Positions 4,449-56,407 of a DNA stretch of 64,000 bases are shown here, piece by piece. Numbering within the stretch: the stretch's first letter is position 1; each line of letters opens with the position of its first letter. This DNA is from an uncultured Thermoanaerobaculia bacterium. Its GTDB lineage: Bacteria > Acidobacteriota > Thermoanaerobaculia > Thermoanaerobaculales > Sulfomarinibacteraceae. The translations under genes were made by a program, and so were the position numbers. The stretch is taken from assembly GCA_964641415.1 (NCBI GenBank), contig CAZXMW010000005.1:14760-78759 (forward strand), written 5' to 3'. Below the pieces are notes generated by a model that ran no database searches, was not told the DNA's origin, and saw only the letters and a program-made list of their open reading frames with translations.

Positions 4449-5051
4449 CTACGGCTTGTACTTGCTGCGGCCGACGAATTTCTTGATCTTGGTGAACCCG
4501 GCCCAGACCTTGACGTTGGTTTCGAGGTCGACCAGGTACGAGTCGACCTGGTAGTACTTGACCTCCTTGCCCTTCTCCGAGTCGAACTGGGAGTTGATCT
4601 CGCCGATCAGCATGTAATCGGCGCCGAGCTCGCGGCCCCACGCCTTCATGCTCTCCTCGGAGGCGAAGCGCTGCTGGTCCTCGCGCTCGGCTCGAAGCTC
4701 GTCGCGCTCCTCGGCGGACGCCACCACGGTGACCCGCCCGGAGTTGATGAACGAGCGCTCGAGGTCGGCGACCAGGGTCTTGACGGCAATGTGCTCCGGG
4801 GTCTTGTTGCGCAGCGTCCCGATGATCACGGCCGGTTTGTCGCCGTGCTTCATCATGTACTCGTCGACCCACGGCGTCGCGGTCGACTGGTCGACCAGAT
4901 CCCCGGCCGCGGTCTGGCTGTCGGTGTCGTTCCACCGTCCGGAGAGATCGATGGTCTCGTCGGTGGGCACTCGAGTGACGGTTGTAGAGCAGCCGGCCAG
5001 CGCCAGCACCAGAATGGTGGCGGCGATCGGTTTGGCAATTCGAGCGGGCAT
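4449..5051 (-). CDS. lpoB: Penicillin-binding protein activator LpoB-like lipoprotein (COG3417 family)
   Basis: It has a lipobox LAGC. Family-typical blocks are present: KPAVIIGTLRNKT, GRELGADYMLIGEI and YYQVDSYLVDLETNVKVW. Confidence 0.7.
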   Translation of the reverse strand: MPARIAKPIAATILVLALAGCSTTVTRVPTDETIDLSGRWNDTDSQTAAGDLVDQSTATPWVDEYMMKHGDKPAVIIGTLRNKTPEHIAVKTLVADLERSFINSGRVTVVASAEERDELRAEREDQQRFASEESMKAWGRELGADYMLIGEINSQFDSEKGKEVKYYQVDSYLVDLETNVKVWAGFTKIKKFVGRSKYKP

Positions 5052-14332: not shown

Positions 14333-16288
14333 ATGGCGTTCGGACACCCGAAGGGACTCTTCCCGCTGTTCTTCACCGAGATGTGGGAGCGACTGGCCTT
14401 CTACACCATGGTCGGCATCCTGCTCCTGTACACCATCGATGCGGAACGCGGGGGCCTCGGGTTGCCGCGGGCGCAGGGCAACGAGATCTACGGGCTGTAC
14501 CTGGCGTTCGTCTACTTCACGCCGTTTCTCGGCGGCATGATCGCCGACCGCTACCTCGGGTACCGTCGATCGGTGGCGATCGGCGGGCTGCTCATGGCGA
14601 GCGGACTGTTCATGATGGGCATCCCGGGCTACACCTTCTTCGTCATGGGCCTGATCGGCCTCATCGTCGGCAACGGCTTCTTCAAGCCCAACATCTCGGT
14701 GATGGTCGGCAACCTGTACGAGCCCGGTGACCCGAAGCGCGACTCGGGCTTCAACATCTTCTACATGGGGATCAACGTCGGCGCTCTCGCGGCGACGCTC
14801 ATCGTCGCCCCGATCGTGCGGAACTACTTCGGCTGGCTGTGGACCTTCCGTGCCGCCGGCATCGGCGTGCTGTTCGCGGTGGTGCTGCTGGCGATCTTCT
14901 GGCGGTCCCTGGCCAATGCCGACCGGCAGCCCGAGCGGAGCGCAGGCGACACCTCGATGGGCGAGATCTTCGGCAAGATCCTGGCGCCGGCGTTCATCGT
15001 CGGGTTCATCGGCTACTTCGCCGCCAAGCAGTTCGAGATGCAGCTGGTCCGGCCGTCGGACTTCGGTTTCCTGGTCGGGATGATCCCGGTGGTCATCTTC
15101 TTCGTCCGGCTCGGGCTCACCGCCAATGAGGAGGAGCGCCCCGGGCTGCTCGCCCTGCTGCCGATCTTCGTCGCCGGCGGCGCCTTCTTCATGATCCTCC
15201 ACCTCAACGGCAGCGCCATGACCCAGTGGGCGCGCGACTACACCGACCGCAGGCCGGGGGTCGCCGCCAGCGTCCCGCTGATCGGGCAGATTCAGCAGGA
15301 TGCCCTGCCCAGCTACTACCTCAACGCCGGTCAGGACGTGCCCCGGCCCCATCCCGACAGCCTGCTCGTGGTGGCCTCGTCGGAGATCGCCAACCAGTTC
15401 GGTCAGAGCCGGATGCGGGAGAGCGCGGTGGCGACCCTGGACGGCTTCGCCGGCATCTCCGTCGTGCGGGTCGGACCGAAGGGCTCGGGTCAGGACCTCG
15501 ACTCCGCCTGGCTGGACCGGGCGGTCAAGGTCTACCCCGACGACGAGGTCAATGTCCGGACCGAAACCGGTTCCCACGGCGAGAAAATCACCACCGTCGC
15601 GCTCGGTGACGGTGCGGTGCCGACCGGCCAGGTCGTGCTGCTCAGGGAGCTCTCGGACGGCGTCCGGATCCCGGTGTTCGTCGTCGACGAGGCGACCAGG
15701 GATGCCATCTACGGTGGCTTCATCGCGCGCTACGGCCGCCCGCCCGACTACTTGCCTCCAGGTCGCTTCCTGCAGGTCGTCAACGCCGAGGTCTACCAGA
15801 GCTGGAACCCGTTCTGGGTCATCTTCCTGACCCCGGTCGTGGTCTGGTTCTTCGGCTGGAGGCTCAAGCTCGGCAAGCCGGTACCGACCGCTCACAAGCT
15901 GCTCTACGGCATGCTGCTGACCACCGCCGCGCTGCTCATCATGGCGGTCGCGGGGTCCCAGACGGACGCCGGTGCGGTCAAGGTGGCCGGGTTGTGGATG
16001 GCGATCTTCTACCTGGTGATCACCCTCGGCGAGCTCTGTCTGTCACCGATCGGGCTGTCGTTGGTGACCAAGCTCGCGCCGCCCCGGCTGGTCGGTCTCG
16101 CGATGGGCGGATGGTTCCTGGCGACCTCGATCGGCAACAAGTTCTCGGGCTTTCTGGGTGCGGTCCAGAATCACATGGAGCCCATGTGGTTCTTCGTATT
16201 CCTGGCCGGGCTGGCGGCCGTGGTGGCGACCTTCATCTTTCTCGTGCTGCCCAGGCTCGACCGCGCAATCAAGAAGTACGGAGCATAG
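14333..16288 (+). CDS. Proton-dependent oligopeptide transporter (POT/PTR2 family)
   Basis: The N-terminus is GHPKGLFPLFFTEMWERLAFYTMVGILLLY, followed by FTPFLGGMIADRYLG (PTR2 signatures). An aaggag RBS lies 7 nt before the ATG. Confidence 0.85.
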   Translation: MAFGHPKGLFPLFFTEMWERLAFYTMVGILLLYTIDAERGGLGLPRAQGNEIYGLYLAFVYFTPFLGGMIADRYLGYRRSVAIGGLLMASGLFMMGIPGYTFFVMGLIGLIVGNGFFKPNISVMVGNLYEPGDPKRDSGFNIFYMGINVGALAATLIVAPIVRNYFGWLWTFRAAGIGVLFAVVLLAIFWRSLANADRQPERSAGDTSMGEIFGKILAPAFIVGFIGYFAAKQFEMQLVRPSDFGFLVGMIPVVIFFVRLGLTANEEERPGLLALLPIFVAGGAFFMILHLNGSAMTQWARDYTDRRPGVAASVPLIGQIQQDALPSYYLNAGQDVPRPHPDSLLVVASSEIANQFGQSRMRESAVATLDGFAGISVVRVGPKGSGQDLDSAWLDRAVKVYPDDEVNVRTETGSHGEKITTVALGDGAVPTGQVVLLRELSDGVRIPVFVVDEATRDAIYGGFIARYGRPPDYLPPGRFLQVVNAEVYQSWNPFWVIFLTPVVVWFFGWRLKLGKPVPTAHKLLYGMLLTTAALLIMAVAGSQTDAGAVKVAGLWMAIFYLVITLGELCLSPIGLSLVTKLAPPRLVGLAMGGWFLATSIGNKFSGFLGAVQNHMEPMWFFVFLAGLAAVVATFIFLVLPRLDRAIKKYGA

Positions 16289-41978: not shown

Positions 41979-42116
41979 ACGAGACCGGACGAAAAGCGTC
42001 ACACGACACGATCCACGAGGCGGCTCAGGCCGCCTCGTTTGGTTTGGTGGGCCGAGGTACACTCGCGTGGCTCGCTGCGGAAGCCGCGACCGTTCCCGAA
42101 AAGGAGGCACTTCGAC

Positions 42117-42899
<783 letters not shown>

Positions 42900-42995
42900 A
42901 CGGCCGTCGTCGGATCGCCGGACGCACGAATCGTCCTTGATGCGACGGCCGAAGCCTCGTAGTATTGTTGCATACGAGTATGTGAGGAGGACCGC

Positions 42996-43460
42996 GTGAG
43001 CGAAGGTGGTGATGGGCCGAGCAAGATCAAGGTTGTGGATCGGCGACGTTTCGACGACAGCGGAGAGCCGAGGCCGGATCGTCCGGCGCCCGAGCCCAAA
43101 CCGAAACCGGAACGCCAGGATCCGCTGACCGGATCGGTCGGGGATGGGCGGACGGCAGCGCCAGACAGTGCCGGCCCGGCCCCCGGGGCTTCGGCAACAG
43201 TGCCCGGTGAAGGGTCGACTGCCGATGCGGCGGGCTCGCCGTTGTTTCTGGAGCTTGTCGCGGCGCTCGCTCAACAGGCGGAGATCCTCATCACCGGCGG
43301 CCAGGGCCTCCCCGCTCAGCCTGCCGAGGCACAACGGGTCATCGACTATCTCGGTGTTCTGGAGAGCAAGACCCGTGGCAATCTTTCGTCCGAAGAGAAG
43401 CAGATTCTGTCCAATGTAATTTTCCAGCTCCGGACACTCTACGTTCAACAGGCAAGATGA
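42996..43460 (+). CDS. DUF1844 domain protein
   Basis: The C-terminal block reads FLELVAALAQQAEILI...AQRVIDYLGVLESKTRGNLSSEEKQILSNVIFQLRTLY. The start is GTG. Confidence 0.7.
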   Translation: MSEGGDGPSKIKVVDRRRFDDSGEPRPDRPAPEPKPKPERQDPLTGSVGDGRTAAPDSAGPAPGASATVPGEGSTADAAGSPLFLELVAALAQQAEILITGGQGLPAQPAEAQRVIDYLGVLESKTRGNLSSEEKQILSNVIFQLRTLYVQQAR

Positions 43461-45262
43461 AACCGCTGGCCCGCGTGTCGATCCTGGTGTGCGCCGCGTT
43501 CGTGGCGGCACCGGTGAGCGCCACGGTTGACGAGGCATGGCTCGGGGTCCAGGAGGTTCTGTCGGCGCCGGAGGATCGGGCGCTCGATGAGCCGGTCGAC
43601 GACCTGGTTCGAGCGGCGGAAGAGATCGATGTCCGACGCCTGACGCCCCAAGCCTCGGCGATGGTCGCCTGGTCGATCAGCCACCCCGAGCAAGGCGACG
43701 CGGCGATGCGAACGGCGATTCGCTTTGACTCGCAGCTGCCGGCGCCCCACTTCCTGCTGTCGAGTCGCAGCTGGCAACGTGGAGCCTATCTCGAAAGCGC
43801 ATCGCACTACGTGCGCGGGTGGTTGGCCGCGTTTCGCCACGAGGTGACGCGTCGTCACCTGGTGATGTCCCTGGGGATTTGGATCATCCTCGGCGCGGTG
43901 GCGGCCGGGACCGCGGCCATGATCGTGATGACGCTGTACACGCTCTCCCGAACTACATTCGACGCACTGTCGGTCGGCGACATGATCTTCGCGCGTGCCA
44001 ACGCCATCGTCTTCGGCGCAGTGCTCGTGCTGCTGCCGGTGTTCGCCGGGCTCGGACCGGCATGGCTGGTGGTCTATCTCTTCGTCGGTGGCTGGATCTA
44101 CCTGGCCCCCGGTGCGCGAGGCCTCGCGGTCGGGCTGTGCTGCTTCCTCGCTGTGGTTCCGGCATTGCTCGAGACCTGGCAGCGCTCGCTGCTCCGGGTG
44201 CCGCCGGTGACCGAACGGGTTTCGGTCATGCTCGACGAGAGGCAGCTCAACCCGTCAGCTCTTCGCGAGTTTCTCGACCTCAAGGGGGAGTTCGACGGCG
44301 ATCCGCTCTTCCACCTGATTCTCGGGGAGCTGCTGCGCATGCACTCGGCCGTCGAATCCGCCAAGGTCGAGTTCCAGACCGCGGCCGTCGAATCCGCTCA
44401 CGACTCTCGCCCGTACGTGTTCCTCGGCAACATGGCGCTGGAGGACGGCAATGTCCAGCTCGCCATCCAGTACTACGATTCGGCGATCGATCTTGACGAT
44501 CGGACGGCGCTGGCGTACCACAACCTGTCCTCCGCGTACGATCTCATTCGTCGTTTCCAGCAGGGCGATGCGGCCCGGGCGCGGGCCCGCGACCTCGCGG
44601 GCGGCCGCTCGGCAACACTCGGCGTGCGCGGGCGCGATCCGAGAGTCCGTTATCCCGGGGTGACTTCTGACGACGTCGACGAGTTCGTGGTGGGTCTGAC
44701 CGACGAGGGTCGACTCCAGGTCGGTTACAGCGCCGCCTCGTTGCGCTCGGCGGTGCAGCTGTTGAGCCCGACGTCGATGCTGTTCTGGCTCGGTGCGGTG
44801 ATGGGTGGAGCGCTGCTGGCGGCTCGGTCGAGGTGGTTTCCGGCCGCCCGACAGTGCTCGAAGTGCGGCAAGGTGTATCGACTCGAGGACGAACCGGGCG
44901 AGAGCCCACTGTACTGCCGCCAGTGCGTGTCGGTGTTCCTGCAGCGTGACCTGGTGCCCATCGAGCAGCAGACGGCGAAGCTCGCCCAGGTTCGCCGCTG
45001 GGATCGTTGGGTCGACGTCTGCCGCCGCGCGGCCTCGGTGCTCGCTCCAGGGTCGGCCATGATCGTGGGCGACCGGGTCGGTCTCGGTCTCGCGGTCGGA
45101 CTGGCTTCGTGGACCGCGCTGGTCGGTCTCGTCGTGTGGACGCCGAGATTTCTCGAGACCATCGAGCCGACCGTGCCGACTCAGCCGGTGATTGCCGTCC
45201 TCGCGGTCGTGCTCGCTGCGAGCTGGCTGCGCTCCGTGCTCGGGTCGTGGCGGAGGAGTTGA
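43457..45262 (+). CDS. Polytopic membrane protein with TPR-like repeats and a C-terminal zinc ribbon
   Basis: There is a signal peptide and several TM helices. TPR-like segments include AIQYYDSAIDLDDRTALAYHNLSSAY. The zinc ribbon is CSKCG...CRQC. An ATGA overlap links it to the DUF1844 gene. Confidence 0.65.
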   Translation: MKPLARVSILVCAAFVAAPVSATVDEAWLGVQEVLSAPEDRALDEPVDDLVRAAEEIDVRRLTPQASAMVAWSISHPEQGDAAMRTAIRFDSQLPAPHFLLSSRSWQRGAYLESASHYVRGWLAAFRHEVTRRHLVMSLGIWIILGAVAAGTAAMIVMTLYTLSRTTFDALSVGDMIFARANAIVFGAVLVLLPVFAGLGPAWLVVYLFVGGWIYLAPGARGLAVGLCCFLAVVPALLETWQRSLLRVPPVTERVSVMLDERQLNPSALREFLDLKGEFDGDPLFHLILGELLRMHSAVESAKVEFQTAAVESAHDSRPYVFLGNMALEDGNVQLAIQYYDSAIDLDDRTALAYHNLSSAYDLIRRFQQGDAARARARDLAGGRSATLGVRGRDPRVRYPGVTSDDVDEFVVGLTDEGRLQVGYSAASLRSAVQLLSPTSMLFWLGAVMGGALLAARSRWFPAARQCSKCGKVYRLEDEPGESPLYCRQCVSVFLQRDLVPIEQQTAKLAQVRRWDRWVDVCRRAASVLAPGSAMIVGDRVGLGLAVGLASWTALVGLVVWTPRFLETIEPTVPTQPVIAVLAVVLAASWLRSVLGSWRRS

Positions 45263-45263
45263 C

Positions 45264-46571
45264 GTGGCGTTGGAAGGCACTCTCAGGGACTTCTCCTTCG
45301 CTGACATTCTGCAGCTGATCTCGCTGCAGAGGAAGACCGGGGTCCTGACTCTCAAGTCGGATGACAACCTCACCACGATTTCATTCGTCGACGGCAACAT
45401 CGTCGGCGCCTCGACGCTCAACCAACACACCGAGGATCTCATCGGCCTGATCCTGCTCAAGCGCGGCGAGGTCGAGGCTGCGGCTCTCGACGAGGCGCTT
45501 CGGTGGCAGCAGGAAACACTCCAACGTCTGGGTCGGATCTTCATCGACCACGGCGTTGTCACGGTCGAGACGGTTCGCTCTGCCCTGCAACAGCAGATTC
45601 TCCAGATCGTCTACCGCGTCTTTCGCTGGAATGACGGCGATTACCACTTTTCTCAGGAATCGGACATCGACTACGATCGCGAGCTCACCGAGCCGATGGC
45701 TGCCGATCACATCATCATGGAAGGCGCCAGAATGACCGACGAGTGGCCGTTCATCGAGCAACGGCTGCCGGACCGCAACGTGGTTCTCGTTCAGGTCGAT
45801 CCGAGGCGCGAGCTCGAGATGGTCGAACCGGCGTCCGACGATTTTGACAATTTGGGCTTCAGCTTTACCGATACGCCACAGGAGGAGCCGCGGCACGTCG
45901 ACGGGCCCGGCGAAGGACAGGTCACTCCCGATCAACTGGCGGTGTACCGACTGGTCAACGGCAGGGATGACGTTCATGAGGTCATCCTGGCGAGCCCGCT
46001 CATCGAGTTCGAGACCTGCAAGGCCCTGGCGGAGCTCATCGAGAGCGGCCTGATTCGAGAACGCAGCAATCAGGAAACGATCCAAGCGGAGCTTCTGACC
46101 GAAGCCGGGTCGACGAGCCGTCGTCGGCGGATCAACATCAGCGCCTTGCCCTGGCTCGCGATTCCGTTTCTGGTTCTTCTCGGTTTCGCCTTGACGGTCA
46201 TGCCGCGCAACCCGTTCAACCCGACCTTCACGGTGCGGCAGGATTTCTGGCAGCGCTACGTGGTGCAGAGTCAGTCCTGGTTGAAGATGGACTGGCTCGC
46301 GCGGAATGCCGAGGCCGACTTCTTTCTCCGGGGCCTCTATCCCGCCGGGCTGGACACACTTTCGGCCTCGCGTCTCGGCCGCTCGATGGCCGAGGACCCT
46401 TGGCAGCGACCCTATCGGATGGCCATTCGGGGGCACAAGCTCATGTTCACCGGTTCGGACAGTCAGGGCCAGCCGGTGCCGATGCTGATTTTGAGCCGCA
46501 GCCTGGCCTGGGAGGGCGAGGTGCAGGATGCTGTGGACCGAACCGGGCCGGGTCTGATCCTCCTCCCGTAG
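45264..46571 (+). CDS. DUF4388 (PatA-N-like) domain protein with a TM segment
   Basis: The N-terminus reads LEGTLRDFSFADILQLISLQRKTGVLTLKSD...ISFVDGNIVGA. A GTG start lies 1 nt after the upstream stop, with a ggaggag RBS. Confidence 0.7.
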   Translation: MALEGTLRDFSFADILQLISLQRKTGVLTLKSDDNLTTISFVDGNIVGASTLNQHTEDLIGLILLKRGEVEAAALDEALRWQQETLQRLGRIFIDHGVVTVETVRSALQQQILQIVYRVFRWNDGDYHFSQESDIDYDRELTEPMAADHIIMEGARMTDEWPFIEQRLPDRNVVLVQVDPRRELEMVEPASDDFDNLGFSFTDTPQEEPRHVDGPGEGQVTPDQLAVYRLVNGRDDVHEVILASPLIEFETCKALAELIESGLIRERSNQETIQAELLTEAGSTSRRRRINISALPWLAIPFLVLLGFALTVMPRNPFNPTFTVRQDFWQRYVVQSQSWLKMDWLARNAEADFFLRGLYPAGLDTLSASRLGRSMAEDPWQRPYRMAIRGHKLMFTGSDSQGQPVPMLILSRSLAWEGEVQDAVDRTGPGLILLP

Positions 46572-46674
46572 CCGGTCTCGACGCGGGAGGCCGCGCCGCC
46601 GCCTTCTCGGTCGAGCCGCCCGCGCAATCTCACGACAATCCGCCACGTGGGGCGATGCGGTGTGGGTGACGTCT

Positions 46675-46727
46675 TCCTCAGATGAGCGACTGTCACCGGC
46701 GATCTGCACCAATCTGGACGGTTGCGA
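46675..46727 (-). repeat. Partial copy C (3' part, inverted) of the roughly 160-nt repeat family
   Basis: The plus strand cctcagatgagcgactgtcaccggcgatctgcacc is the near reverse complement of the copy A 3' end. There is an internal deletion relative to A. Confidence 0.7.
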
Positions 46728-46752
46728 CGATCGCGTGAGGCCGCCCGGTCTG

Positions 46753-46786
46753 CAGTCAAGAATATACTTGACAAAGAAACACTCAG
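46753..46786. promoter_or_regulatory. HAIR-like HspR operator half-sites overlapping the dnaK promoter
   Basis: CTTGACA-N7-ACTCAGG (46766-46786) compares with the HAIR consensus CTTGAGT-N7-ACTCAAG. There is also an upstream GTCAAG-N6-CTTGAC inverted repeat. Confidence 0.55.
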
Positions 46787-46795
46787 GTTTTATGA
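46767..46795 (+). promoter_or_regulatory. Sigma70-type promoter of dnaK
   Basis: The elements are TTGACA-N17-TATGAT, about 37 nt upstream of ATG 46832, with a gaggagg RBS. Confidence 0.65.
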
Positions 46796-46831
46796 TGTGT
46801 CCGGATCGCAGAATTTGAGGAGGACATTAGC

Positions 46832-48757
46832 ATGTCTCGTGTCATCGGAATCGACCTCGGAACGACCAACTCGGTCGTCGCCGTCATGGAAGGCGGGAAG
46901 CCGGCCGTCATCGCAAATCAAGAGGGAAACCGCACCACCGCATCGGTGGTCGCCTTCAATTCGTCCGGAGAGCGTCTTGTCGGCCAGGTGGCCAAACGCC
47001 AGGCCGTGACCAACCCCGAAAACACAGTCTTTTCGGTCAAACGTTTCATGGGGCGTAGGTTCGACGAGGTAGCCGGGGAGATCAAGACCGTTCCCTATAT
47101 GGTGGTCAAGGGCGAGAACGATACCGCCCGGATCGAGATCCTCGACAGGGTCTACTCGCCGCCTGAAATTTCGGCGATGGTCCTGCAGAAGCTCAAGGCG
47201 GCTGCCGAGGACCATCTGGGAGGGCCGGTCGACAAGGCGGTGATTACCGTCCCGGCCTACTTCAACGATGCCCAGCGGAAGGCAACCAAGGACGCCGGCC
47301 AGATCGCCGGGCTTGAGGTGCTGCGGCTGGTCAACGAGCCGACCGCTGCGGCCCTCGCCTACGGGCTCGACCGGAAGGAAGACGAAACGATTGCCGTGTT
47401 CGACTTCGGCGGCGGCACCTTCGACATCTCGATTCTCGAGGTCGGCGCCGGCGTTGTCGAGGTCAAGTCGACCAACGGCGACACCCATCTCGGAGGCGAC
47501 GACATCGACCAGCTGATCATCGACTGGTTGGTGGAGGAGTTCAAGAAGGACCAGGGCGTCGACCTGAGCCAGGACCGGATGGCGCTGCAGCGGCTCAAAG
47601 AAGCCGGAGAAAAGGCCAAGATGGAGCTCAGCGCGACCATGGAAACCGACATCAATCTGCCGTTCATCACCGCCGACGCCTCGGGGCCGAAGCATCTGGC
47701 GCTGAAGCTCACCCGGTCGAAGTTCGAGCAGATGATCGGCCCGCTGGTCGACCGGACGCTCGAGCCCTGTCGGCAGGCGCTCAAGGACGCCGGCATCGAG
47801 GCCAAGGACGTCGACGAGGTGGTTCTGGTCGGTGGTTCGACCCGGATCCCGATGGTCCAGAAGGCGGTGACGGACTTTTTCGGCAAGGAACCTCACCGCG
47901 GCGTCAACCCCGACGAGGTGGTCGCCATCGGAGCGGCGGTCCAGGCTGGCGTGCTCGCCGGTGAGGTCAAGGACGTGCTCCTGCTCGACGTCACCCCGCT
48001 TTCGCTCGGCGTCGAGACCCTGGGCGGCGTGACCGACGTCGTGATTCCCCGCAATACGACGATTCCGACCCGCAAGAGCAAGGTCTACTCGACGGCGGAC
48101 GACAACCAGAATCAGGTCGAGATTCACGTTCTCCAGGGCGAGCGCACCATGGCTCCGGACAACCGGACCCTCGGTCGGTTTCACCTGATGGGCATTCCGG
48201 CGGCGCCCCGCGGGGTGCCGCAGATCGAGGTCACGTTCGACATCGACGCCAACGGCATTCTCCACGTCTCGGCCAAGGACCGCGGAACCGGCCAGGAGCA
48301 GAAGATCCAGATCACCAGCTCGTCGGGTCTCAACGACGACGAGATCGACCGCATGGTGAACGAGGCCAAGACTCACGCCACTGACGACGAGGCCAAGCGC
48401 AAGCAGATCGAAACCCGAAACAAGCTCGACGGGCTCGTATACTCGACCGAGAAGCTGCTCGCCGAGAACCGCGACAAGCTGCCCGAGGGCGAGACCAGGA
48501 ACATCGACGAGGTCATCGCCGACGCCAAGAAGGCACTCGAGGAGGGCGACGAGAGCCGGATGGAGCAGGTGTACGAACAGCTGACCCAGGCGAGCCACCA
48601 GATCGCCGCGGCGCTCTATCAGACCGCCACCGGCGACGGCGGACCGGCCGGCGACGGCGCGTCGGACTCCGGCGCCGCGGCGGGCGCGGCGGGCGAGGAC
48701 GACGAGGTCATTGATGCCGAGTACGTCGACGTCGAGCCGGAAGAAGAAAAATCATGA
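46832..48757 (+). CDS. dnaK: Molecular chaperone DnaK (Hsp70)
   Basis: The sequence reads [33 protein letters not shown] and a C-terminal Gly/Ala/acidic tail. Confidence 0.97.
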
Positions 48758-48765
48758 TTGCGGCC

Positions 48766-48794
48766 GGGAGGCGGGCTTCCGGCGCCCGCCTCCC
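48766..48794 (+). other. GC-rich hairpin between dnaK and hspR (possible partial terminator or processing site)
   Basis: An 11-bp perfect stem gggaggcgggc / gcccgcctccc has a 7-nt loop. There is no U tract. Confidence 0.4.
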
Positions 48795-48921
48795 CCGGGC
48801 CCTCCTCCCGTCGTGACGACACGGCGGGAAAGGGGCAATGGTAGAGTCGAGACACAGGCACATCGAGAGTCGGTGCCGGCAAGCGGTCGTCATCGACCGG
48901 TCGTGGGTGTTTGGAGGCCTC

Positions 48922-49296
48922 GTGAAGTCCAAGCCGCGGTACCGCATGATCTCCTGGGTCGCGGAGAAGTACAACGTACACCCGCAGACGCTGCGTTTGT
49001 GGGAGCGCGAGGGTCTGATCCAGCCGAGCCGTTCCGAAGGCAACACGCGCCTGTATGACGAGCAGGCATGTCTCCAGCTCGAGACGATTCTGACTCTGAC
49101 CCGCGACCTGGGCGTCAATCTCGCCGGAGTCGAGATCATTCTCAATCTGAAGTCCCAGATCGGTCAGCTTCAGGCCGAGAACCGGATGCTCAAGAAGCTC
49201 GTCCGGCAGGCTTTGCGAAGCAAGCGGGAGGTGCCGCGCTATCACGCCCTGGTCAAGTTCGAGACCGGCTCGATCCAGGTCGTGGATGACGAATGA
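48922..49296 (+). CDS. hspR: MerR-family heat-shock repressor HspR
   Basis: The HTH reads YRMISWVAEKYNVHPQTLRLWEREGLIQPSRSEGNTRLY and a coiled-coil tail follows. It lies directly downstream of dnaK. A ggagg RBS precedes GTG 48922. Confidence 0.75.
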   Translation: MKSKPRYRMISWVAEKYNVHPQTLRLWEREGLIQPSRSEGNTRLYDEQACLQLETILTLTRDLGVNLAGVEIILNLKSQIGQLQAENRMLKKLVRQALRSKREVPRYHALVKFETGSIQVVDDE

Positions 49297-50162
49297 CCGC
49301 CTCCACCGGGCGACCGCGCAACGCCGAATCCGCTACCCTGCGCCGATACCTGGAAGACATCTCCAGATATCCGATGCTGAGCCACGACGAGGAGGTCGAG
49401 CTCGCTCGTCGTGTCAAGGCCGGCGATCACGAGGCCGTTCGGCGGCTTGTCGAGGCCAACCTGCGCTTCGTGGTTGCCTACGCCAAGCGCTACCGGACAC
49501 CCAACGTGCCGTTTCTCGATCTCATCCACGAGGGGAACCTCGGCCTGATCCAGGCGGCCAAGAAGTACGACCCGTTCGGCGAGGGCCACGACGTCAAGTT
49601 CATCACCTATGCCGTTTGGTGGATCCGCCAGGCGATCCTGCACGCGCTGGCGGAGCATGCAGGATCGTTCCGCCTGCCCCAGAAGCAGGCGAACAACCTG
49701 TACCGGCTCGAAAGGGTCCGGTCACTGCTCCAGGAGCGACATGGACGGGCGCCGACCGACGTCGAGCTCGCCGACGAGCTCGATCTGTCGGTGGACGACG
49801 TGCAGGTGCTGACCCAGGCGTCCCAGTCTTCGCTATCCCTCAACGAGCCGGTCGACGTCGACGGCAATTCCGAACTCGGCGATCTTCTCGAGCAGACGAC
49901 GCTCCCGGACACCGACGACCGGCTCGTTCAGGAGTCGTTCCGGGTCGCGTTGGCAGATGCCCTCGGCGAGCTGCCCGACCGGGAGCGACGCGTGCTCGAG
50001 CTGCGGTTCGGTCTCCTGGACGACCAACCCAAAACCCTGAGGGAGATCGGCGAGATCCTCGATTTGTCGCGGGAGCGCGTGCGGCAGATCGAGAGCCGCG
50101 CCCTCAACCGACTGCGATGCTCACACACCACCCAGTCCCTCTCCGGATACCTCAGTGCATGA
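49293..50162 (+). CDS. Sigma-70 family RNA polymerase sigma factor (regions 2, 3 and 4 present; group 2/3-like)
   Basis: Region 2 reads NLRFVVAYAKRY...DLIHEGNLGLIQAAKKYD...FITYAVWWIRQAI. Region 4 reads LREIGEILDLSRERVRQIESRAL. An ATGA overlap links it to hspR. Confidence 0.85.
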   Translation: MTASTGRPRNAESATLRRYLEDISRYPMLSHDEEVELARRVKAGDHEAVRRLVEANLRFVVAYAKRYRTPNVPFLDLIHEGNLGLIQAAKKYDPFGEGHDVKFITYAVWWIRQAILHALAEHAGSFRLPQKQANNLYRLERVRSLLQERHGRAPTDVELADELDLSVDDVQVLTQASQSSLSLNEPVDVDGNSELGDLLEQTTLPDTDDRLVQESFRVALADALGELPDRERRVLELRFGLLDDQPKTLREIGEILDLSRERVRQIESRALNRLRCSHTTQSLSGYLSA

Positions 50163-50210
50163 TGACCGCAGCTGTGCGATGTCATTGATCATTCAAAATT
50201 CATCATTGGC

Positions 50211-50765
50211 TCAGATTTCATCGCCATCCTCGGCATCGTCGCGGGCCTCTTCGTGCCGGGCAGCCGCCTTGTTCCGCACGACGACCCAGGTTCCGGCGAG
50301 GAGGTCGTGGAGAGCGCGTCTGTCTTCGCGAAGCACGATCAGGAGATGGCCCATTCCCGCCGTCACCGAGCTCACCGAGTACGCGGCGAGCCGGAGGAAA
50401 GCGCGGGACAGGCCGATCGGCCACTTCCCTCGATGATCGACGACGACAAGGCCGAACATCCACTTGCCGATGGTCGTCCCGACGAGACCCCAGCCGACTG
50501 CGAAGTAACACCACCACAGCGCGATCCACAGACCGATGATGCCGGCCACGTGGGCAATCCAAGCGGGGTCGGACAGCGAGTCGACGGCCAGCGTCGGGTC
50601 TCGGATCAGCGGTTGCCAGTCGATGGCCCGAGCGGCGGGGTAGGCGAGGAGAGCGCAGATACCGCAGTACACGACCATGTCGACGAGGGTTGCCGGCAGT
50701 CGCCGAAACAGGCCCGCCGGGAGCAGCGCGCCGGGTGGACGGCCGTTTGCGCGACCGTCGATCAC
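50211..50765 (-). CDS. RDD family membrane protein
   Basis: The sequence reads RRLPATLVDMVVY and has 3 TM helices. The GTG start overlaps the stop of the upstream gene (GTGA). Confidence 0.6.
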   Translation of the reverse strand: MIDGRANGRPPGALLPAGLFRRLPATLVDMVVYCGICALLAYPAARAIDWQPLIRDPTLAVDSLSDPAWIAHVAGIIGLWIALWWCYFAVGWGLVGTTIGKWMFGLVVVDHRGKWPIGLSRAFLRLAAYSVSSVTAGMGHLLIVLREDRRALHDLLAGTWVVVRNKAAARHEEARDDAEDGDEI

Positions 50766-52426
50766 AGCGGTGTCAGACCTCCGTTTTTCTGGTGATCCAG
50801 CCAAAGGCCGGCGTAGGCGTAGAGGAAGCGGAACCGAGACCTGTAGATCTGTTCGAGCTGCTCGGTTTCGGCCCGATACAGCATGTCGTCGATGAACCAC
50901 AGGAACCTGCGCTCGATCTCGCGGGCCCGGTCGAGGCTGCTCGCCGACGTCTCGAGCATCTCGAACAGGCGGTCTGGTTTGGAGCTCGAAGCCAGCCGTT
51001 CGATCTCTCGCCGTTCCTCCTCCATCTTGACCCTGAGGGCCGCGCTGGTGAGGAAAAACCGCTGCAGCTGACGGTCCTCGCTGTCATCAGACTCCTGCTG
51101 CTCGGCCATCTGACGGTAGGTTTCGACCTCCCACGCTTCGAGGCCGAGGCTCCTGATCTCCGGCGCCTCGACGACCTGTTCGGGCGTCCGGTCCCAGATC
51201 ACGAGTTCGAGCGCGAACATGATCTTGTGAAGAACCTCGTTGAGCAGCGGATCGCTGGGAAGGAGGTCGGTGATGGAAGTGATGGGCGGCTCGCCGGGCG
51301 ACCTGCCCCCGGCTGGTTCCAGCTCACGTTCGGGCCGAATCGGTGCGGGCTCGATCTCGGCGACCTCGTCCACGAGCTCGAGGGGTTTGGACGCTCTGGC
51401 GGCGACGCTCCGGTCGGTCGGGACGCCGGTTGCGAGCACATCCGCGGCGGTCGACTCGAAGTGCGCCAAAACATCGTGCATGGACTGGCGGAGCTCGAGA
51501 ATGTCCGAGCGCTTGACATTGTGCTGCCGTCGCGCATCCTCGAACCGGACCCGTGACTGCCGAAAGACGTCGATCTTGTCCTTGATCTCACGGGTCGCGA
51601 GCCCGGGATTCTTGGTCAGGTACCGCTCGATGTCGAAGATCCGGTTGGTGCCCTCGAGGAGCTGCCGTTCCTCGATGTCGAAGAGTTCGCGAAAGCGGTT
51701 TCGGGCGGCGATGTTGGTCGCCGTGATCTCGACCAGCAGCGGCGGGTGCAGCATGGCTCGCCCGATTCTGGTCTTGAAGCCGCGCAGACGGTCGTAGACC
51801 CTCGATTGGACCAGGGTGTCGAAGTCTCCGATTCGCTCGAACTCGTCGTGGAGCTCCTTGACGGCTTCGATCAGCGGTTTCTCCTCCTCGGGCGGCAGCA
51901 CGGCGAGCCCGGCGAACGCCGCCAGACGCTCGAAGGTCGAGAGCAGCTCGGGTCGCGCTCTCTGCATCAGCTCATCGTTGTCGGCCGGGGTCTCGGCGAG
52001 CCGGGTCAGCAGAATGTCGAGCTTGTCGAAGGTCTCCTGACTCGGGTGCTTCGCCATCAGGTAGAACTTGACCAGCGCAAACAGGATTTTTTCGTCCTGC
52101 CGCTTGAGATGGTCGAAAAAACGCCGCAGATACGATGGCGGAAACGTCCGTTCCAGGCGGGTCAGCTCGCCATGAATCCGTTCCAGCTCGCGCTCGATGG
52201 TCTCGAACTCGATGAGCACCAGCTTGTCGACGTGATCACCGATTCGGGGCACGATCCCCTGAATTCGCTGATACAGCGCCTGAAAATCATACTCGTACGG
52301 TATTGCTCCATCGCCGCGGTGCTTGTAGACCCCGGCCAGAAACTGGAAGAAGGTCCACAGTGAACGGAATCGATCCGAAAGCCCGGTGTAGCGCTCACTG
52401 ATCCCGTGGGCCCCAGCAGTTTTCAT
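50762..52426 (-). CDS. Conserved-looking hypothetical 554-aa helical protein
   Basis: It is a long ORF with GC-typical codon usage and starts MKTAGAHG. No motif was recognised. It is translationally coupled to the RDD gene. Confidence 0.6.
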   Translation of the reverse strand: MKTAGAHGISERYTGLSDRFRSLWTFFQFLAGVYKHRGDGAIPYEYDFQALYQRIQGIVPRIGDHVDKLVLIEFETIERELERIHGELTRLERTFPPSYLRRFFDHLKRQDEKILFALVKFYLMAKHPSQETFDKLDILLTRLAETPADNDELMQRARPELLSTFERLAAFAGLAVLPPEEEKPLIEAVKELHDEFERIGDFDTLVQSRVYDRLRGFKTRIGRAMLHPPLLVEITATNIAARNRFRELFDIEERQLLEGTNRIFDIERYLTKNPGLATREIKDKIDVFRQSRVRFEDARRQHNVKRSDILELRQSMHDVLAHFESTAADVLATGVPTDRSVAARASKPLELVDEVAEIEPAPIRPERELEPAGGRSPGEPPITSITDLLPSDPLLNEVLHKIMFALELVIWDRTPEQVVEAPEIRSLGLEAWEVETYRQMAEQQESDDSEDRQLQRFFLTSAALRVKMEEERREIERLASSSKPDRLFEMLETSASSLDRAREIERRFLWFIDDMLYRAETEQLEQIYRSRFRFLYAYAGLWLDHQKNGGLTPL

Positions 52427-52455
52427 GTTGAGTCTACGATACACTGCGCAGCGGC

Positions 52456-52998
52456 GTGACACAACGAGAAGAGATCTTCATGCTGGGACCGGTGGTGGTG
52501 CCGAGAGCCGACATCGAGACCATGATCGACCGCCTCTCGCGCGAGATCGAGGCGGATCTGAAAGGCCGGTCGCCGGTCTTCATCGGGGTGCTCAAGGGCT
52601 GCGTCTTTTTCTTCACGGACCTCGTGTCCCGCCTGAGTCAATCGGTGGAGATGGACTTCATCCAGGTTTCAAGCTATGGCGCGAGCACTACCTCATCGGG
52701 ATCCGTGGTCCTGGTCAAGGACATCACCGTCAACGTCCGCGACCGCGACGTCTATCTCGTCGAGGACATCGTCGACACCGGGTCGACCCTGACCGATGTC
52801 ATCAGTCTGCTCGAGGCACGACACCCGCGGTCGATCCAGGTGGTGTCGCTGCTGTCCAAGCCGGCTCGGCGTCAGGTCGAGGTCGACATCGCGTTTCTCG
52901 GCACCGAGATCGAAGATCGTTTCGTCATCGGTTACGGTCTCGACTACGACGAGCGCTATCGTAATCTGCCGGAGATCCACGAACTTGTGTCCGAGTGA
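52456..52998 (+). CDS. hpt: Hypoxanthine phosphoribosyltransferase
   Basis: The PRPP motif is VYLVEDIVDTGSTL. The sequence also reads GVLKGCVFFFTDL and FVIGYGLDYDERYRNLPEI. The start is either GTG 52456 or ATG 52480. Confidence 0.9.
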   Translation: MTQREEIFMLGPVVVPRADIETMIDRLSREIEADLKGRSPVFIGVLKGCVFFFTDLVSRLSQSVEMDFIQVSSYGASTTSSGSVVLVKDITVNVRDRDVYLVEDIVDTGSTLTDVISLLEARHPRSIQVVSLLSKPARRQVEVDIAFLGTEIEDRFVIGYGLDYDERYRNLPEIHELVSE

Positions 52999-53079
52999 CG
53001 CCCGAACTCGGTCGGTCCGGGTTACAATGCGCGCACCTTTGACACGCCCAGCTGCGAGGGCCGCCGACAGGGAGAGGCG

Positions 53080-53979
53080 ATGAAGCCAGTCGATGTTCGT
53101 GTGCTGATTCGTGGTGCCGGCGAGCTAGCGTCGGCGACCGCGCATCTGCTGTTCACTCAGGGGTTCGAGCGGATCCTGCTGCTCGACCGCCGATTCCCCA
53201 AGGCTGTTCGGAGACGGGTGTGTTTCTGTGAGGCCATTCTCGACGGGTCGCAGAAGATCCAAGGAGTGGTGGGTCGATTCGCTCCCGACATCGCAGCGGT
53301 CGAGGCGGCCCATGTCGACGGCGAGATCGCGGTCGGGATCATGAACCACGAGACCGTGCTCGGTCAGTGGCGCCCCGAGGTCTTCATCGAGGCGGCGATG
53401 CAACGCCGTAACTGGGGTCTGACCCGGGACCTCGCGCCCATCGTCATCGCCCTCGGCCCGGGCTATGTCGCCCACAAGGACTGCGACGCCCTCGTCGACA
53501 CCGTACGCGGCCCGATGGTCGGCAACATCATCGAGGACACCGGCGAGCACCTCGCCAATGAGCCGCCCGCCGAGATCATGGGTTACTCCGAGGAGAGGGT
53601 TTTGAAGGCGATTCGGGACGGCATCTTCTTCACCCAGCATGCGATCGGCGACACGGTCGAGCGGGGCGAGCGGATCGGAACGGTGGTTTCGGTGTACGGT
53701 GTCGACGACTACCGGCGAGGGGTGCCGGTGGATGCGTCGTACTCGGTGACGGCTCGGATCGGCGGGGCGATTCGGGGGCTGCTCCGCGACGGTGTCCCGG
53801 TCAAGGGCGGCGACCGGATCGGCGACATCGATCCCCGAGGCGCGACCGACGACCTCGATCACGTGTCCGACAAGTCCCATCGGGTGGCGGAGGGCGTGCT
53901 CGAAGCGCTGTTGAGCCTCATGTCCGAGCTCCGGAAATCACCTCCCGCCGAGGTCGAGAACAGCTACAATCCGCGTTGA
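53080..53979 (+). CDS. YqeB/EF2563-like protein (family linked to selenium-dependent molybdenum hydroxylase maturation)
   Basis: The N-terminus VLIRGAGELASATAHLLFTQGFERILLLD...PKAVRRRVCFCEAILDG matches my recollection of the family pattern. This was not verified by a search. Confidence 0.45.
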   Translation: MKPVDVRVLIRGAGELASATAHLLFTQGFERILLLDRRFPKAVRRRVCFCEAILDGSQKIQGVVGRFAPDIAAVEAAHVDGEIAVGIMNHETVLGQWRPEVFIEAAMQRRNWGLTRDLAPIVIALGPGYVAHKDCDALVDTVRGPMVGNIIEDTGEHLANEPPAEIMGYSEERVLKAIRDGIFFTQHAIGDTVERGERIGTVVSVYGVDDYRRGVPVDASYSVTARIGGAIRGLLRDGVPVKGGDRIGDIDPRGATDDLDHVSDKSHRVAEGVLEALLSLMSELRKSPPAEVENSYNPR

Positions 53980-54857
53980 TGGCTTGGCAGGGTTCGGTCC
54001 GCCGCGCCGCAATGCGTTTGCGGTCTCCGGTGCTCGCGCTCGGAGGCGGCGGCGCGCGCGGATTCGCCCACATCGGGGTGCTCCGGGTCATCGAACAGCA
54101 GTCTGTGGGTTTTCGTGCCGTCGTCGGGACCAGTATGGGATCGGTGATGGGGGCCATGTATCTGGTCCACGGGAGCGCCGACGCGGTCGAGGCTCGGTGG
54201 CGCGACGCGATTGAGGAGCGGATTCTGCCTGAAGTCCGTCAGGTCCGGATGGTGCCGCGGGCGATGCAACGTGAGCACCCACTGATCCAGGTCGCCCGGC
54301 AGATCAAGAACCGCGTCGTGGTCTCCTTCGCACTCAACCGCAGCACGGTGCTCGACGGTGCGGTGCTCGACCGCGCGATCGACTACCTGCTTCCTGATAT
54401 CGGGATCGAGGATCTTCCGAAACCGTTCATCGCGGTCGCAACAGACCTGGAGATCGGGACCGAGGTCAGATTGACCCGCGGTCCGCTCAGGCCGGCCGTC
54501 AAGGCGTCGAGCTCGATTCCCGGCATGGTGCCGGCGGTCGTCATCGACGGTGAGATGCTGGTCGACGGCGGGGTCATCGCCGAGGTTCCGGTCGCAGCGG
54601 CACGCGGCTGCGGGAAACCGGTGCTGGCGGTCGACGCGTCCATGGTGATTCCGCCGCTGGCCGACGATGATCTCGCGCTCGACACCATGATGCGTACCCA
54701 AATGATGACGTCTCAACGGCTGCGGGAGCGGCAGCTTGCCGGCGCACGCTGGGTCATCCGCCCCGACATCGGCCATGTGGCCTGGGCCGACTGGAACGCC
54801 CTCGACGACATGATCGACGCCGGGCAGAGCGCCGCTCAGGCATTTTTCGTCGGGTGA
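53979..54857 (+). CDS. Patatin-like phospholipase
   Basis: The motifs are GGGGARG (oxyanion), GTSMG (GxSxG) and DGG. The start overlaps the upstream stop. Confidence 0.85.
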   Translation: MAWQGSVRRAAMRLRSPVLALGGGGARGFAHIGVLRVIEQQSVGFRAVVGTSMGSVMGAMYLVHGSADAVEARWRDAIEERILPEVRQVRMVPRAMQREHPLIQVARQIKNRVVVSFALNRSTVLDGAVLDRAIDYLLPDIGIEDLPKPFIAVATDLEIGTEVRLTRGPLRPAVKASSSIPGMVPAVVIDGEMLVDGGVIAEVPVAAARGCGKPVLAVDASMVIPPLADDDLALDTMMRTQMMTSQRLRERQLAGARWVIRPDIGHVAWADWNALDDMIDAGQSAAQAFFVG

Positions 54858-54889
54858 CTGTAGCCCTTCGGGGCGCCTCGACTCGCGTG

Positions 54890-56407
54890 TCACTCTCCGA
54901 AGGTTTCGACGTGCCGCTCGTGCGCTCGTTCGAGCCACGGGCGCCAGGTTCGGGACGCGCGGAGCAGCTCGCTCACCTTGACCGGTCGCAGCCGGCGACG
55001 GGTGAGCTCCTGGACGAATCGCGGCAGGTCGGACCACGGCGGCTCCTCGCGCTCGGTCGCCAGGTGCATCAGGACGATGCCTCCTTCGAGCCGTGGAAAC
55101 GCGAGCAGCCGGTCGACCATCCGGCGCGAGTTTCGGTACAGGCGCGAGTGCTCGTCGGCGATCCAGTCAAGGGAGTCCAGCGACGCGCCTTCGAGCGAGC
55201 TCCAGCGGACGTGCAGGTACCCGAGTTCCATGCCCCACTGACGCAGCTCGGAGTTCTCTTCGCCGTACGGTGCGCGCCACAGCGGCACCATGGCACGACC
55301 GGTGGCCTTGCGAAAGGCGATCTCTGTCTGTCGCAGCTGGTCATGCAGCATGGCCCGCGTCACACCAGGGAGAGTGCGGTGGCGGCGGTCGTCCGCCCAG
55401 CTCGTCAGGTGCGGGTGTGAGTAGGTGTGACTGCCGACCTCATGGCCGGCGAGCACGGCCTGACGGACCAGAGTCGGGTACCGCTCGACGAAACGGCCGG
55501 TGACGAAGAGCGTAATCTGCAAATCAAGACGTTGCAGCAGATCGAGAAGCTCCGCGGTGCCGTTGGAGGACCCGTCGCCGTCGAAGGTGACGGCGATTCG
55601 AGGTCCGGCGTCGGTGACCAGGTGGAGCACCGGCGGCGACGGACCGCGCGACCTCGACCGGGTCGCCGCACCGTCGCGAATCGCCGTCGGCAGCCGATCT
55701 CGGGCAGGAGGCGCCGTGGCGGTCGGTCGTCGGGTCTCTGTCGGCGTCGTTGTCGGCGTCTCTGTCGGCGTCATTGTCGGTGTCTCGGTTGCGGTTGCAC
55801 TGGCGGTCTGCGTCGGGGACGAGGTTGCGGTTGCCGTCGGAGTCGAGGTCGCCGTCGGTGTTTCGGTCGGCAGAGGCGGGATCGTCTCCGGGGCCTCGGC
55901 GAACGAGGCGATGGCGAGCTCGGCGCCGGGATCGATCTCGAGATCGTCGACGAGCGCTTCGCCCCGACGATCCAGGGTCACGATCCTCACCGGACGCCCA
56001 TCGGCGATCAGAACCGCTTGAGAGTCCGGAGTGCCCCGGACGCGGACTGTGGGCCGGTCGCTGCCGCGCACCAGCTCGGCGACGGCGTGCGGCCCTTCGG
56101 CGAGTCCGGGTGCGTGCCGAATCTCGACCATCCAGCCGGCGAGCACGACACCGATCCAGGAGCTCGCGGCCAGCAGGCTGACGGCGACCACGATGGTTGC
56201 CCAAGGCCGGGGAACGCGTCGTCGGAGCCCGGTCCGACCGGTCGCGGCGAGGCGTGCTCCGAGGTCATGGAGTCGGCATCTCCAACCGCAGTAGGCGTAA
56301 CCGCTCCTCAGCTCGACGCAGCGGTCGCACAGCCACTTTCCGCAGCCGCGACACCGGACCTCGGCCTCGCGCGACGGGTGGTTCGCACAGCGCGAGATCA
56401 CCCGCAT
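54890..56407 (-). CDS. Polysaccharide deacetylase (NodB homology) with N-terminal zinc ribbon, TM helix and Pro/Thr-rich linker
   Basis: The zinc ribbon is C..H...E..C..CG...C..C. The linker is TPTATSTPTATATSSPTQTASATATETPTMTPTETPTTTPTE. The NodB part reads VTFDGDG...TLFVTG...GHEVGSHTYSHPHL. Confidence 0.8.
   Translation of the reverse strand: MRVISRCANHPSREAEVRCRGCGKWLCDRCVELRSGYAYCGWRCRLHDLGARLAATGRTGLRRRVPRPWATIVVAVSLLAASSWIGVVLAGWMVEIRHAPGLAEGPHAVAELVRGSDRPTVRVRGTPDSQAVLIADGRPVRIVTLDRRGEALVDDLEIDPGAELAIASFAEAPETIPPLPTETPTATSTPTATATSSPTQTASATATETPTMTPTETPTTTPTETRRPTATAPPARDRLPTAIRDGAATRSRSRGPSPPVLHLVTDAGPRIAVTFDGDGSSNGTAELLDLLQRLDLQITLFVTGRFVERYPTLVRQAVLAGHEVGSHTYSHPHLTSWADDRRHRTLPGVTRAMLHDQLRQTEIAFRKATGRAMVPLWRAPYGEENSELRQWGMELGYLHVRWSSLEGASLDSLDWIADEHSRLYRNSRRMVDRLLAFPRLEGGIVLMHLATEREEPPWSDLPRFVQELTRRRLRPVKVSELLRASRTWRPWLERAHERHVETFGE

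Follow-up and report, generated by a model that had tools for sequence, protein, structure and literature searches.

Bacterial heat-shock control is classically divided between activation by a dedicated sigma factor of the sigma-32 type and repression by regulators of the HrcA or HspR type. Here we analyse a dnaK-hspR-sigma factor locus within a 64,000-nucleotide stretch of DNA (hereafter the window; positions 14,760 to 78,759 of contig CAZXMW010000005.1, assembly GCA_964641415.1) from an uncultured Thermoanaerobaculia bacterium of the Acidobacteriota, a phylum that ranks with the most abundant bacteria of soils and sediments and one whose stress regulation is, to our knowledge, essentially unstudied. 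The closest described system is the actinobacterial dnaK-grpE-dnaJ-hspR operon of Streptomyces and Mycobacterium, with which the locus shares a MerR-type hspR gene downstream of dnaK and a HAIR-type inverted repeat over the dnaK promoter, and hence an expected autoregulatory repressor logic. It departs from the actinobacterial operon in lacking grpE and dnaJ, both in the cluster and in the window, in its hybrid operator, the left half of which doubles as the −35 hexamer (CTTGACA), in the hairpin and internal extended −10 candidate promoter that separate dnaK from hspR, in the sigma factor gene coupled to hspR, and in its acidobacterial host. We consider it probable that the locus represents a two-promoter heat-shock regulatory module conserved in Acidobacteriota.

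Other described systems share individual elements with this locus. The cbpA-hspR-orf cluster of Helicobacter and Campylobacter also places hspR after a J-domain co-chaperone gene, as in two of the locus variants described below (types D and E), and has a tightly linked third gene; that third gene is a helicase-like open reading frame (ORF) and not a sigma factor, and the lineage of the window has no J-protein gene. Proteobacterial sigma-32 (RpoH), with its DnaK/DnaJ feedback, is comparable in a possible function, that of a dedicated sigma factor tied to chaperone expression, and in the dnaK promoter of relatives lacking hspR, which resembles sigma-32-type promoters. The sigma factor encoded here is, however, not a member of the RpoH family, and its gene is linked to dnaK. 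A two-tier cascade in which a heat-shock repressor stands above a stress sigma factor has been predicted for Geobacter sulfurreducens, with HrcA/CIRCE control of rpoH and CIRCE directly upstream of rpoH (PMC545781). The present locus differs from that prediction in the repressor system (HspR/HAIR rather than HrcA/CIRCE), in the sigma factor family and in its layout, with the operator at dnaK and a separate, HAIR-less candidate promoter for the sigma factor.

The three genes are adjacent, and all features given below lie on the + strand. The dnaK gene (46832–48757) encodes an Hsp70 protein of 641 aa, which exceeds the NCBIfam DnaK equivalog cutoff (NF001413, 1003 bits against 648; Pfam HSP70, 875 bits), and is preceded by a Shine-Dalgarno (SD) sequence, GAGGAGG (46817–46823); TTGAGGAGG is kept upstream of dnaK in all close relatives. 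It is followed by a GC-rich stem-loop (48762–48801), by an hspR-like MerR-family repressor gene of 124 aa with a GTG start (48922–49296; SD GGAGG at 48913–48917) and by the gene for an alternative sigma-70-family factor of 289 aa (49293–50162), in which Pfam recognises regions 1.2, 2, 3 and 4. The stop codon of hspR overlaps the start codon of the sigma factor gene as ATGA (49293–49296), which implies that the two genes are translationally coupled. A sequence-only reading of this DNA had described the order dnaK, hairpin, hspR and 289-aa sigma factor, the overlap with its coupling and the lack of grpE and dnaJ, and each of these points was borne out: all elements lie where it had placed them, and tblastn searches found no homologue of grpE, dnaJ or hsp20, and no second sigma factor gene, in the whole 64-kb window. 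No grpE match was found in the window or in any related locus, although the E. coli GrpE query makes this a weakly sensitive test.

Scanning one genome per species with the sigma factor recovered 80 loci (47–89% sigma factor identity), all from Acidobacteriota apart from a few odd bin labels, and their intervening ORFs were annotated by tblastn and Pfam. Among loci whose upstream sequence reaches far enough, nearly all have the sigma factor orthologue a short way downstream of dnaK, in five variants: dnaK-hspR-sigma (type A; the window and ~22 loci), dnaK-hsp20-hspR-sigma (type B), dnaK-hsp20-sigma without hspR (type C), dnaK-hsp20-dnaJ-hspR-sigma (type D) and dnaK-dnaJ-hspR-sigma (type E). 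One locus has dnaK directly followed by the sigma factor gene (L073), and two loci are clear exceptions although 8 kb upstream was available: L038, with an hspR-sigma pair but no dnaK, and L076, with the sigma factor gene alone (Acidobacteria bacterium Mor1). The ATGA overlap of the window recurs in 32 of the 80 loci, while in other lineages the two genes overlap by 11 or 17 nt or stand 1–4 nt apart, with wider spacing in a handful. Linkage of dnaK to the sigma factor gene is a deep, conserved feature of Acidobacteriota and the rule for this sigma factor family. The arrangement is not rare but widespread in the phylum, with dnaJ and/or hsp20 inside the cluster in other lineages. The suggestion of the sequence-only reading that it had not been described has held, as literature searches for hspR with a sigma factor in Acidobacteria or Thermoanaerobaculia, or for hspR with a group 2 sigma factor, found no description of the module. 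A transcriptome of Granulicella WH15, in which dnaK, hspA, 'RpoD' and lon2 are co-downregulated, was considered and does not concern this module, as the locus tags are non-adjacent. The best 120 matches of the three protein searches included no cultured carrier, all being metagenome-assembled genomes (MAGs) or metagenomes.

The dnaK gene is preceded by a predicted promoter, P1 (46768–46796), composed of TTGACA (46768–46773), a 17-bp spacer and TATGAT (46791–46796), which matched 11 of the 12 consensus positions in a promoter scan. Overlapping the −35 element and spacer of P1 is a HAIR-like HspR operator, CTTGACA-N7-ACTCAGG (46767–46787), which agrees at 11 of the 14 specified bases with the published HAIR consensus CTTGAGT-N7-ACTCAAG (PMC7464140). 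This is the only zero-mismatch operator site in the window, and each of the 40 operator sites found in the window and loci precedes dnaK. The right half-site, (A/G)CTCA(G/A)G, is near-invariant and occupies the same spacer position in relatives; a sigma-70-type promoter makes no sequence demand in its spacer. Allowing at most one mismatch, the operator is present in 40 of 50 loci with hspR and in none of 12 loci without it (Fisher p = 3e-7, with loci treated as independent though they are related). Such co-variation of operator and repressor provides good comparative evidence for a MerR protein acting at the dnaK operator, and we regard control of dnaK by HspR through HAIR as highly probable on these comparative grounds. 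A perfect 6-bp inverted repeat, GTCAAG-N6-CTTGAC (46755–46772), also overlaps the P1 −35 element; it is specific to this genome and not kept in relatives.

The P1 promoter varies with the presence of the repressor. The geometry CTTGAC[AG]-N14-TYYTA is common to all lineages, and each of its 47 occurrences in ~1.1 Mb of sequence (window plus loci) lies directly upstream of dnaK. The −7 T of the −10 hexamer is found in 41 of 41 loci with hspR against 2 of 13 without it (p = 8e-10, again treating related loci as independent), the hexamer reading as a housekeeping −10 in the former and as TCTTA(A/G) in the latter. Without hspR, the promoter takes a form similar to that of sigma-32-type promoters, for example the CTTGAcA-N13-aCttAT given for a delta-proteobacterial grpE-dnaK (PMC545781). 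From these comparisons, lineages with the repressor pair HspR with a strong housekeeping-type dnaK promoter, whereas lineages without it appear to rely on an alternative sigma factor there, for which the co-encoded sigma factor is an obvious but unproven candidate.

The longest ORF covering hspR is 48838–49296, but its ATG at 48838 sits in a conserved promoter-like element (P2, below). The start codon is most likely GTG at 48922 and not this ATG, because of the SD sequence GGAGG, the length of the homologues (124 aa in more than 100 of them) and the same length of 124 aa in a gene called independently in a close relative. The product scores 89.4 bits (E = 1e-25) against the HspR model NF047375, about 55 bits above the next MerR subfamily (≤35 bits). 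It has an N-terminal MerR-type winged helix-turn-helix (Pfam MerR_1 56 bits, MerR_2 51 and MerR 45, all above cutoffs), and JGI names its homologues 'MerR family/heat shock protein HspR'. Two further marks of HspR family members are present, namely a HAIR operator at a chaperone gene promoter and an encoding gene within a dnaK/J-protein cluster.

The region between dnaK and hspR contains two elements that bear on how the locus is transcribed. The stem-loop directly after the dnaK stop codon (fold energy −33.5 kcal/mol) has a perfect core of 11 bp, in which GGGAGGCGGGC (48766–48776) pairs with GCCCGCCTCCC (48784–48794), and can be extended to 15 pairs. It has the GC-rich stem of a Rho-independent terminator and lacks the U-tract, since no T-tract follows it and a terminator scan found nothing on the + strand. 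GC-rich hairpins lie directly 3' of dnaK in most relatives, and in five of them (L002, L003, L022, L024 and L059) the hairpin is followed by a T-tract, forming a canonical terminator. For the window hairpin, a role as attenuator, partial terminator or stabiliser of the mRNA 3' end is probable.

Downstream of the hairpin is a candidate internal promoter, P2 (48839–48847), recognised by motif conservation as an extended −10 element, TGGTAGAGT (TGn + TAGAGT). Of 38 loci of type A and near type B, 25 have the motif TGnTAnAnT, seen as TGnTA(G/A/C)A(G/T)T, in the interval from dnaK to hspR or hsp20, compared with 0.6 expected from shuffled sequence, and it is accompanied by neither a conserved −35 element nor a HAIR. 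Its distance to the hspR start is variable (22 to 242 nt), which fits a promoter rather than a translational signal. Comparable elements are found in other variants: in type C loci TG(n)TATACT or TATAAT immediately precedes the sigma factor gene, and in type D loci TTGAAC-18-TATACT lies within the dnaJ 3' end, a short way before hspR. P2 is absent from the Thermoanaerobaculaceae-type B loci (L027–L037), where the genes are tightly packed. P2 is likely, on this motif conservation, to be a real promoter, and it is very likely that hspR-sigma has some HspR-independent basal transcription. Because the conserved P2-like element upstream of hspR lacks a HAIR, the pair is probably not solely under HspR control. 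The locus is thus probably not a simple single operon but two nested units, P1/HAIR-dnaK-hairpin followed by P2-hspR-sigma. This revises the sequence-only reading in part: its proposal of HspR/HAIR control gains a HAIR-like operator at the dnaK promoter that co-occurs with hspR, but does not extend unchanged to hspR-sigma, which has a HAIR-less promoter-like element of its own. The single dnaK-hspR-sigma operon that it had drawn is made improbable by the strong hairpin after dnaK and the conserved extended −10 upstream of hspR. A separate promoter for the sigma factor gene, which it had itself named as an argument against its proposal, is at motif level largely what P2 supplies.

Several further observations concern these leader regions. 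The dnaJ-embedded TTGAAC-18-TATACT lies in the last dnaJ codons (...RLNPENPRxYT) of L045, L056, L063, L065–L067, L070, L071 and L074; its nucleotides are conserved there, third codon positions among them, suggesting constraint both as coding sequence and as promoter. In hspR-less relatives (L039, L043, L046, L048, L049, L055 and L062) the sigma factor gene has its own TATACT or TATAAT −10 about 60–150 nt upstream, and ~20 nt 3' of that −10 a small stem-loop holds a conserved CCGATAAG. The surrounding GC-rich leader, ~90–110 nt long, may be a regulatory 5' untranslated region, for example a thermosensor or a protein-binding site. An RNA thermometer in the hspR leader of the window was considered and rejected (leader fold z-score −0.97), and no Rfam match at E ≤ 1 was found in 46500–50300.

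The 289-aa sigma factor is RpoD/SigA-like and is not an RpoH-type heat-shock sigma factor. It lacks region 1.1: its alignment begins with region 1.2 near residue 15, and no part of it matches RpoD residues 1–95. Its PDB matches rank Firmicute SigA highest (217 bits), followed by actinobacterial SigA/HrdB and SigB, RpoD (178), RpoS (160) and RpoH (88), and its identity to E. coli proteins is 38.6% for RpoD, 38.0% for RpoS, 30.3% for FliA and 28.8% for RpoH. No curated NCBIfam equivalog cutoff is reached, neither for the best RpoD models (234–251 bits against cutoffs of 384–572, e.g. 246 against 572) nor for the curated RpoH models (160 bits against 323; 155 against 241), and the RpoH box QRKLFFNLR finds no alignment in the protein. 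An RpoH identity was accordingly ruled out by the NCBIfam and PDB scores and the E. coli identities.

With residues numbered as in E. coli sigma-70, from the alignment with E. coli RpoD, the protein keeps the melting residues Y430, W433 and W434, together with Q437, and the region 4.2 residues R584, E585, R588 and Q589, which read the TTGACA-type −35 element. Four replacements are found across the family (T440L, R441H, H455K and E458N), at positions that recognise −12 and, in extended −10 promoters, the TG, and the signature KFITYAVWW(I/V)RQ(A/S)I(L/I)HAL...FRLPQKQANxLYR is near-invariant; the window protein carries this family signature (KFITYAVWWIRQAILHAL...FRLPQKQANxLYR). Group 2 stress sigma factors (RpoS, cyanobacterial SigB and actinobacterial SigB) resemble the protein in having regions 1.2–4 without 1.1 and an RpoD-like C-terminal tail, and its identity to RpoD and RpoS (38–39%) is in keeping with them. 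It is unlike group 2 sigma factors in the four replacements, which mean that the promoter-reading residues of primary sigma factors are not retained, in reaching no curated cutoff and in its phylum-specific FRLPQKQAN signature. The absence of region 1.1, the altered −10-reading residues, the SigA-like scores and the near-invariant signature together lead us to view it as an RpoD-derived alternative sigma factor. Public databases name the family 'RNA polymerase primary sigma factor' (JGI) or 'RpoD/SigA' (NCBI), names that are probably wrong or misleading for a protein that has no region 1.1 and in which promoter-reading residues are altered. The sigma factors of L015 and L019 carry an 11-aa insertion, IPDPSxPxxTK, between regions 2.2 and 2.3, and at the same spot, compared with primary sigma factors, 3 aa are inserted in the window protein and its closest relatives.

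In the two-promoter module that we favour, P1 would drive dnaK as a near-consensus housekeeping-type promoter overlaid at its −35 element and spacer by the HAIR-like operator. The 124-aa HspR would occupy this −35 and spacer region and repress dnaK at normal temperature, probably with DnaK as co-repressor, and would be released when unfolded proteins titrate DnaK, by analogy with Streptomyces and Mycobacterium. The GC-rich hairpin would lower transcription past dnaK, leaving DnaK in excess over HspR and the sigma factor, while P2, which has no HAIR, would supply HspR-independent basal transcription of hspR-sigma, and the ATGA coupling would cause HspR and the sigma factor to be made in a fixed ratio. 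The sigma factor would probably guide RNA polymerase to a separate regulon for stress or heat shock, with second-tier promoters predicted to combine a TTGACA-like −35 with a non-canonical −10 or extended −10 region; the chances that it controls a stress or heat regulon are about even. Upon heat shock, derepression of P1 and read-through of the U-tract-less hairpin would add to the output of P2, raising the sigma factor and HspR together, although heat induction of the sigma factor by read-through is plausible rather than probable.

Several points weigh against this reading. P1, P2 and the read-through are read at the level of motifs. Of the two operator halves, the right one alone makes a good HAIR half-site; the other coincides with the −35 hexamer and may owe its conservation to the promoter alone, and no second HAIR-like site occurs in the window or in the 80 loci, the sole further match being a chance-level one with three mismatches at 4779. 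The HspR score of 89.4 bits falls below the NCBIfam trusted cutoff of 105, short of equivalog assignment, and the hairpin has a weak z-score (−1.7) in its GC-rich context. What the sequences themselves show is how the genes are ordered and overlap, which operator and promoter motifs are present, conserved and co-varying, and where the sigma factor belongs among its families; repression by HspR, the part of DnaK as co-repressor, the activity of P2, the read-through and the regulon of the sigma factor are inferred.

Two main rivals, which are not mutually exclusive, have to be weighed against the two-promoter module. The hairpin may end dnaK transcripts, in which case hspR-sigma would be an independent, essentially constitutive P2 unit whose sigma factor is not induced by HspR derepression. 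Stress would then control the activity of the sigma factor rather than its amount, for example through sequestration by DnaK, as for sigma-32, or through an unlinked anti-sigma factor, and the linkage to dnaK would reflect functional partnership and not co-transcription. The conservation of P2 without a HAIR is consistent with this, as are the canonical hairpin and T-tract terminators after dnaK in the five relatives noted above and the −10 that lies immediately upstream of the sigma factor gene or hspR-sigma pair in every lineage examined. It is harder to reconcile with the missing T-tract of the window hairpin and with L027–L037, which have no P2 and in which the tight packing of dnaK-hsp20-hspR-sigma implies co-transcription, and co-directional adjacency maintained over deep divergence is most simply understood as at least partial co-transcription. 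We regard a fully independent hspR-sigma unit as rather unlikely. The other rival, to which we give no greater credence, is that P1 is read by the sigma factor itself, which would act as a functional counterpart of sigma-32 and positively autoregulate the dnaK-(hsp20)-sigma cluster, P2 providing a basal pool and HspR, where present, adding a repressor layer on a P1 that the housekeeping sigma factor can also read. A basal promoter beside the sigma factor gene combined with an operon promoter is the classical layout of autoregulated alternative sigma factors and speaks for it, as do the invariance of CTTGAC[AG]-N14-TYYTA in all lineages and its restriction to dnaK, the hspR-less −10 TCTTA(A/G), which lacks the −7 T needed by the housekeeping sigma factor (2 of 13 have it), and the sigma factor residues, those reading the TTGACA −35 being kept and those in regions 2.4 and 3.0 altered. 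The resemblance of the hspR-less −10 region to sigma-32-type promoters (PMC545781) points the same way. The argument nevertheless proceeds by guilt by association, in that an unlinked RpoH or another sigma factor could read P1. The DNA-reading residues are, moreover, the same in lineages with and without hspR although the P1 −10 differs between them, and no other promoter with the motif is present in ~1.1 Mb of neighbouring sequence. The strongest form of this proposal, in which the protein is the heat-shock sigma factor of Acidobacteriota, an independently evolved sigma-32 analogue that reads CTTGAC-N14-TYYTA, is made in fixed stoichiometry with HspR and is possibly checked by DnaK or HspR, is offered only tentatively.

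Two further readings are effectively excluded. That the 289-aa protein is the housekeeping (primary) sigma factor, placed beside dnaK without regulatory meaning, might be argued from its JGI and NCBI names and from its best PDB matches, which are primary sigma factors. On sequence grounds this is very unlikely, as region 1.1 is entirely absent, no RpoD equivalog cutoff is reached, T440, R441, H455 and E458, conserved in primary and primary-like sigma factors, are replaced, and the gene is tied to a heat-shock cluster and not to the usual dnaG-rpoD context. Even less credible is an adjacency arising by chance or recent accident, given a linkage kept across ~70 species-level loci at 47–89% sigma factor identity, the conserved 4-nt overlap and the synteny of the whole neighbourhood in a relative.

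The window has a GC content of ~63–72%, and its best protein matches are Acidobacteriota MAGs labelled Thermoanaerobaculia, 'Holophagae' or Sulfomarinibacteraceae. Genes flanking the module are not stress-related, with a DUF4388/PatA_N protein gene upstream and a convergent RDD-family gene downstream. A neighbourhood of ~20 kb is syntenic between the window and one close relative, a Thermoanaerobaculales MAG (L087/L088; sigma factor 81% identical). The syntenic span corresponds to about 42000–56400 of the window, with the shared order enoyl-CoA hydratase, DUF1844, 601-aa membrane protein, PatA_N, dnaK, hspR, sigma and RDD (− strand), followed by a 555–566-aa protein without Pfam match (− strand), a phosphoribosyltransferase, a 288–299-aa unknown protein, a patatin and a polysaccharide deacetylase. 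The relative also encodes a LonC-type protease ~7 kb downstream of the sigma factor gene. The listed TTG start of the DUF4388/PatA_N ORF upstream of dnaK (45192–46571) overlaps the preceding 601-aa ORF by 71 nt, whereas the orthologue in the relative is 435 aa long and begins right after the 601-aa gene, and on the basis of that gene call the true start is probably near 45264. The sole Rfam match in the 64-kb window is a tRNA gene (1205–1276; 74 bits).

The module is best regarded as a variant of the HspR/dnaK system whose new features are the conserved coupled hspR-sigma pair, the sigma factor subfamily, the −35/HAIR hybrid operator and the candidate internal promoter. It points to an undescribed wiring of heat-shock control within Acidobacteriota, and a sigma factor gene joined to hspR behind dnaK across the phylum would define a new sigma factor subfamily with a concrete role. 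Lineages with hspR, in which a housekeeping-type promoter is combined with an operator, and lineages without it, which have an alternative-type promoter, form a natural comparison suggesting that repressor-based and sigma factor-based control can replace each other. If the sigma factor does prove to be a sigma-32 analogue, a single compact locus would hold both a repressor tier and a sigma factor tier, with the sigma factor left to act by itself in lineages that have lost hspR.

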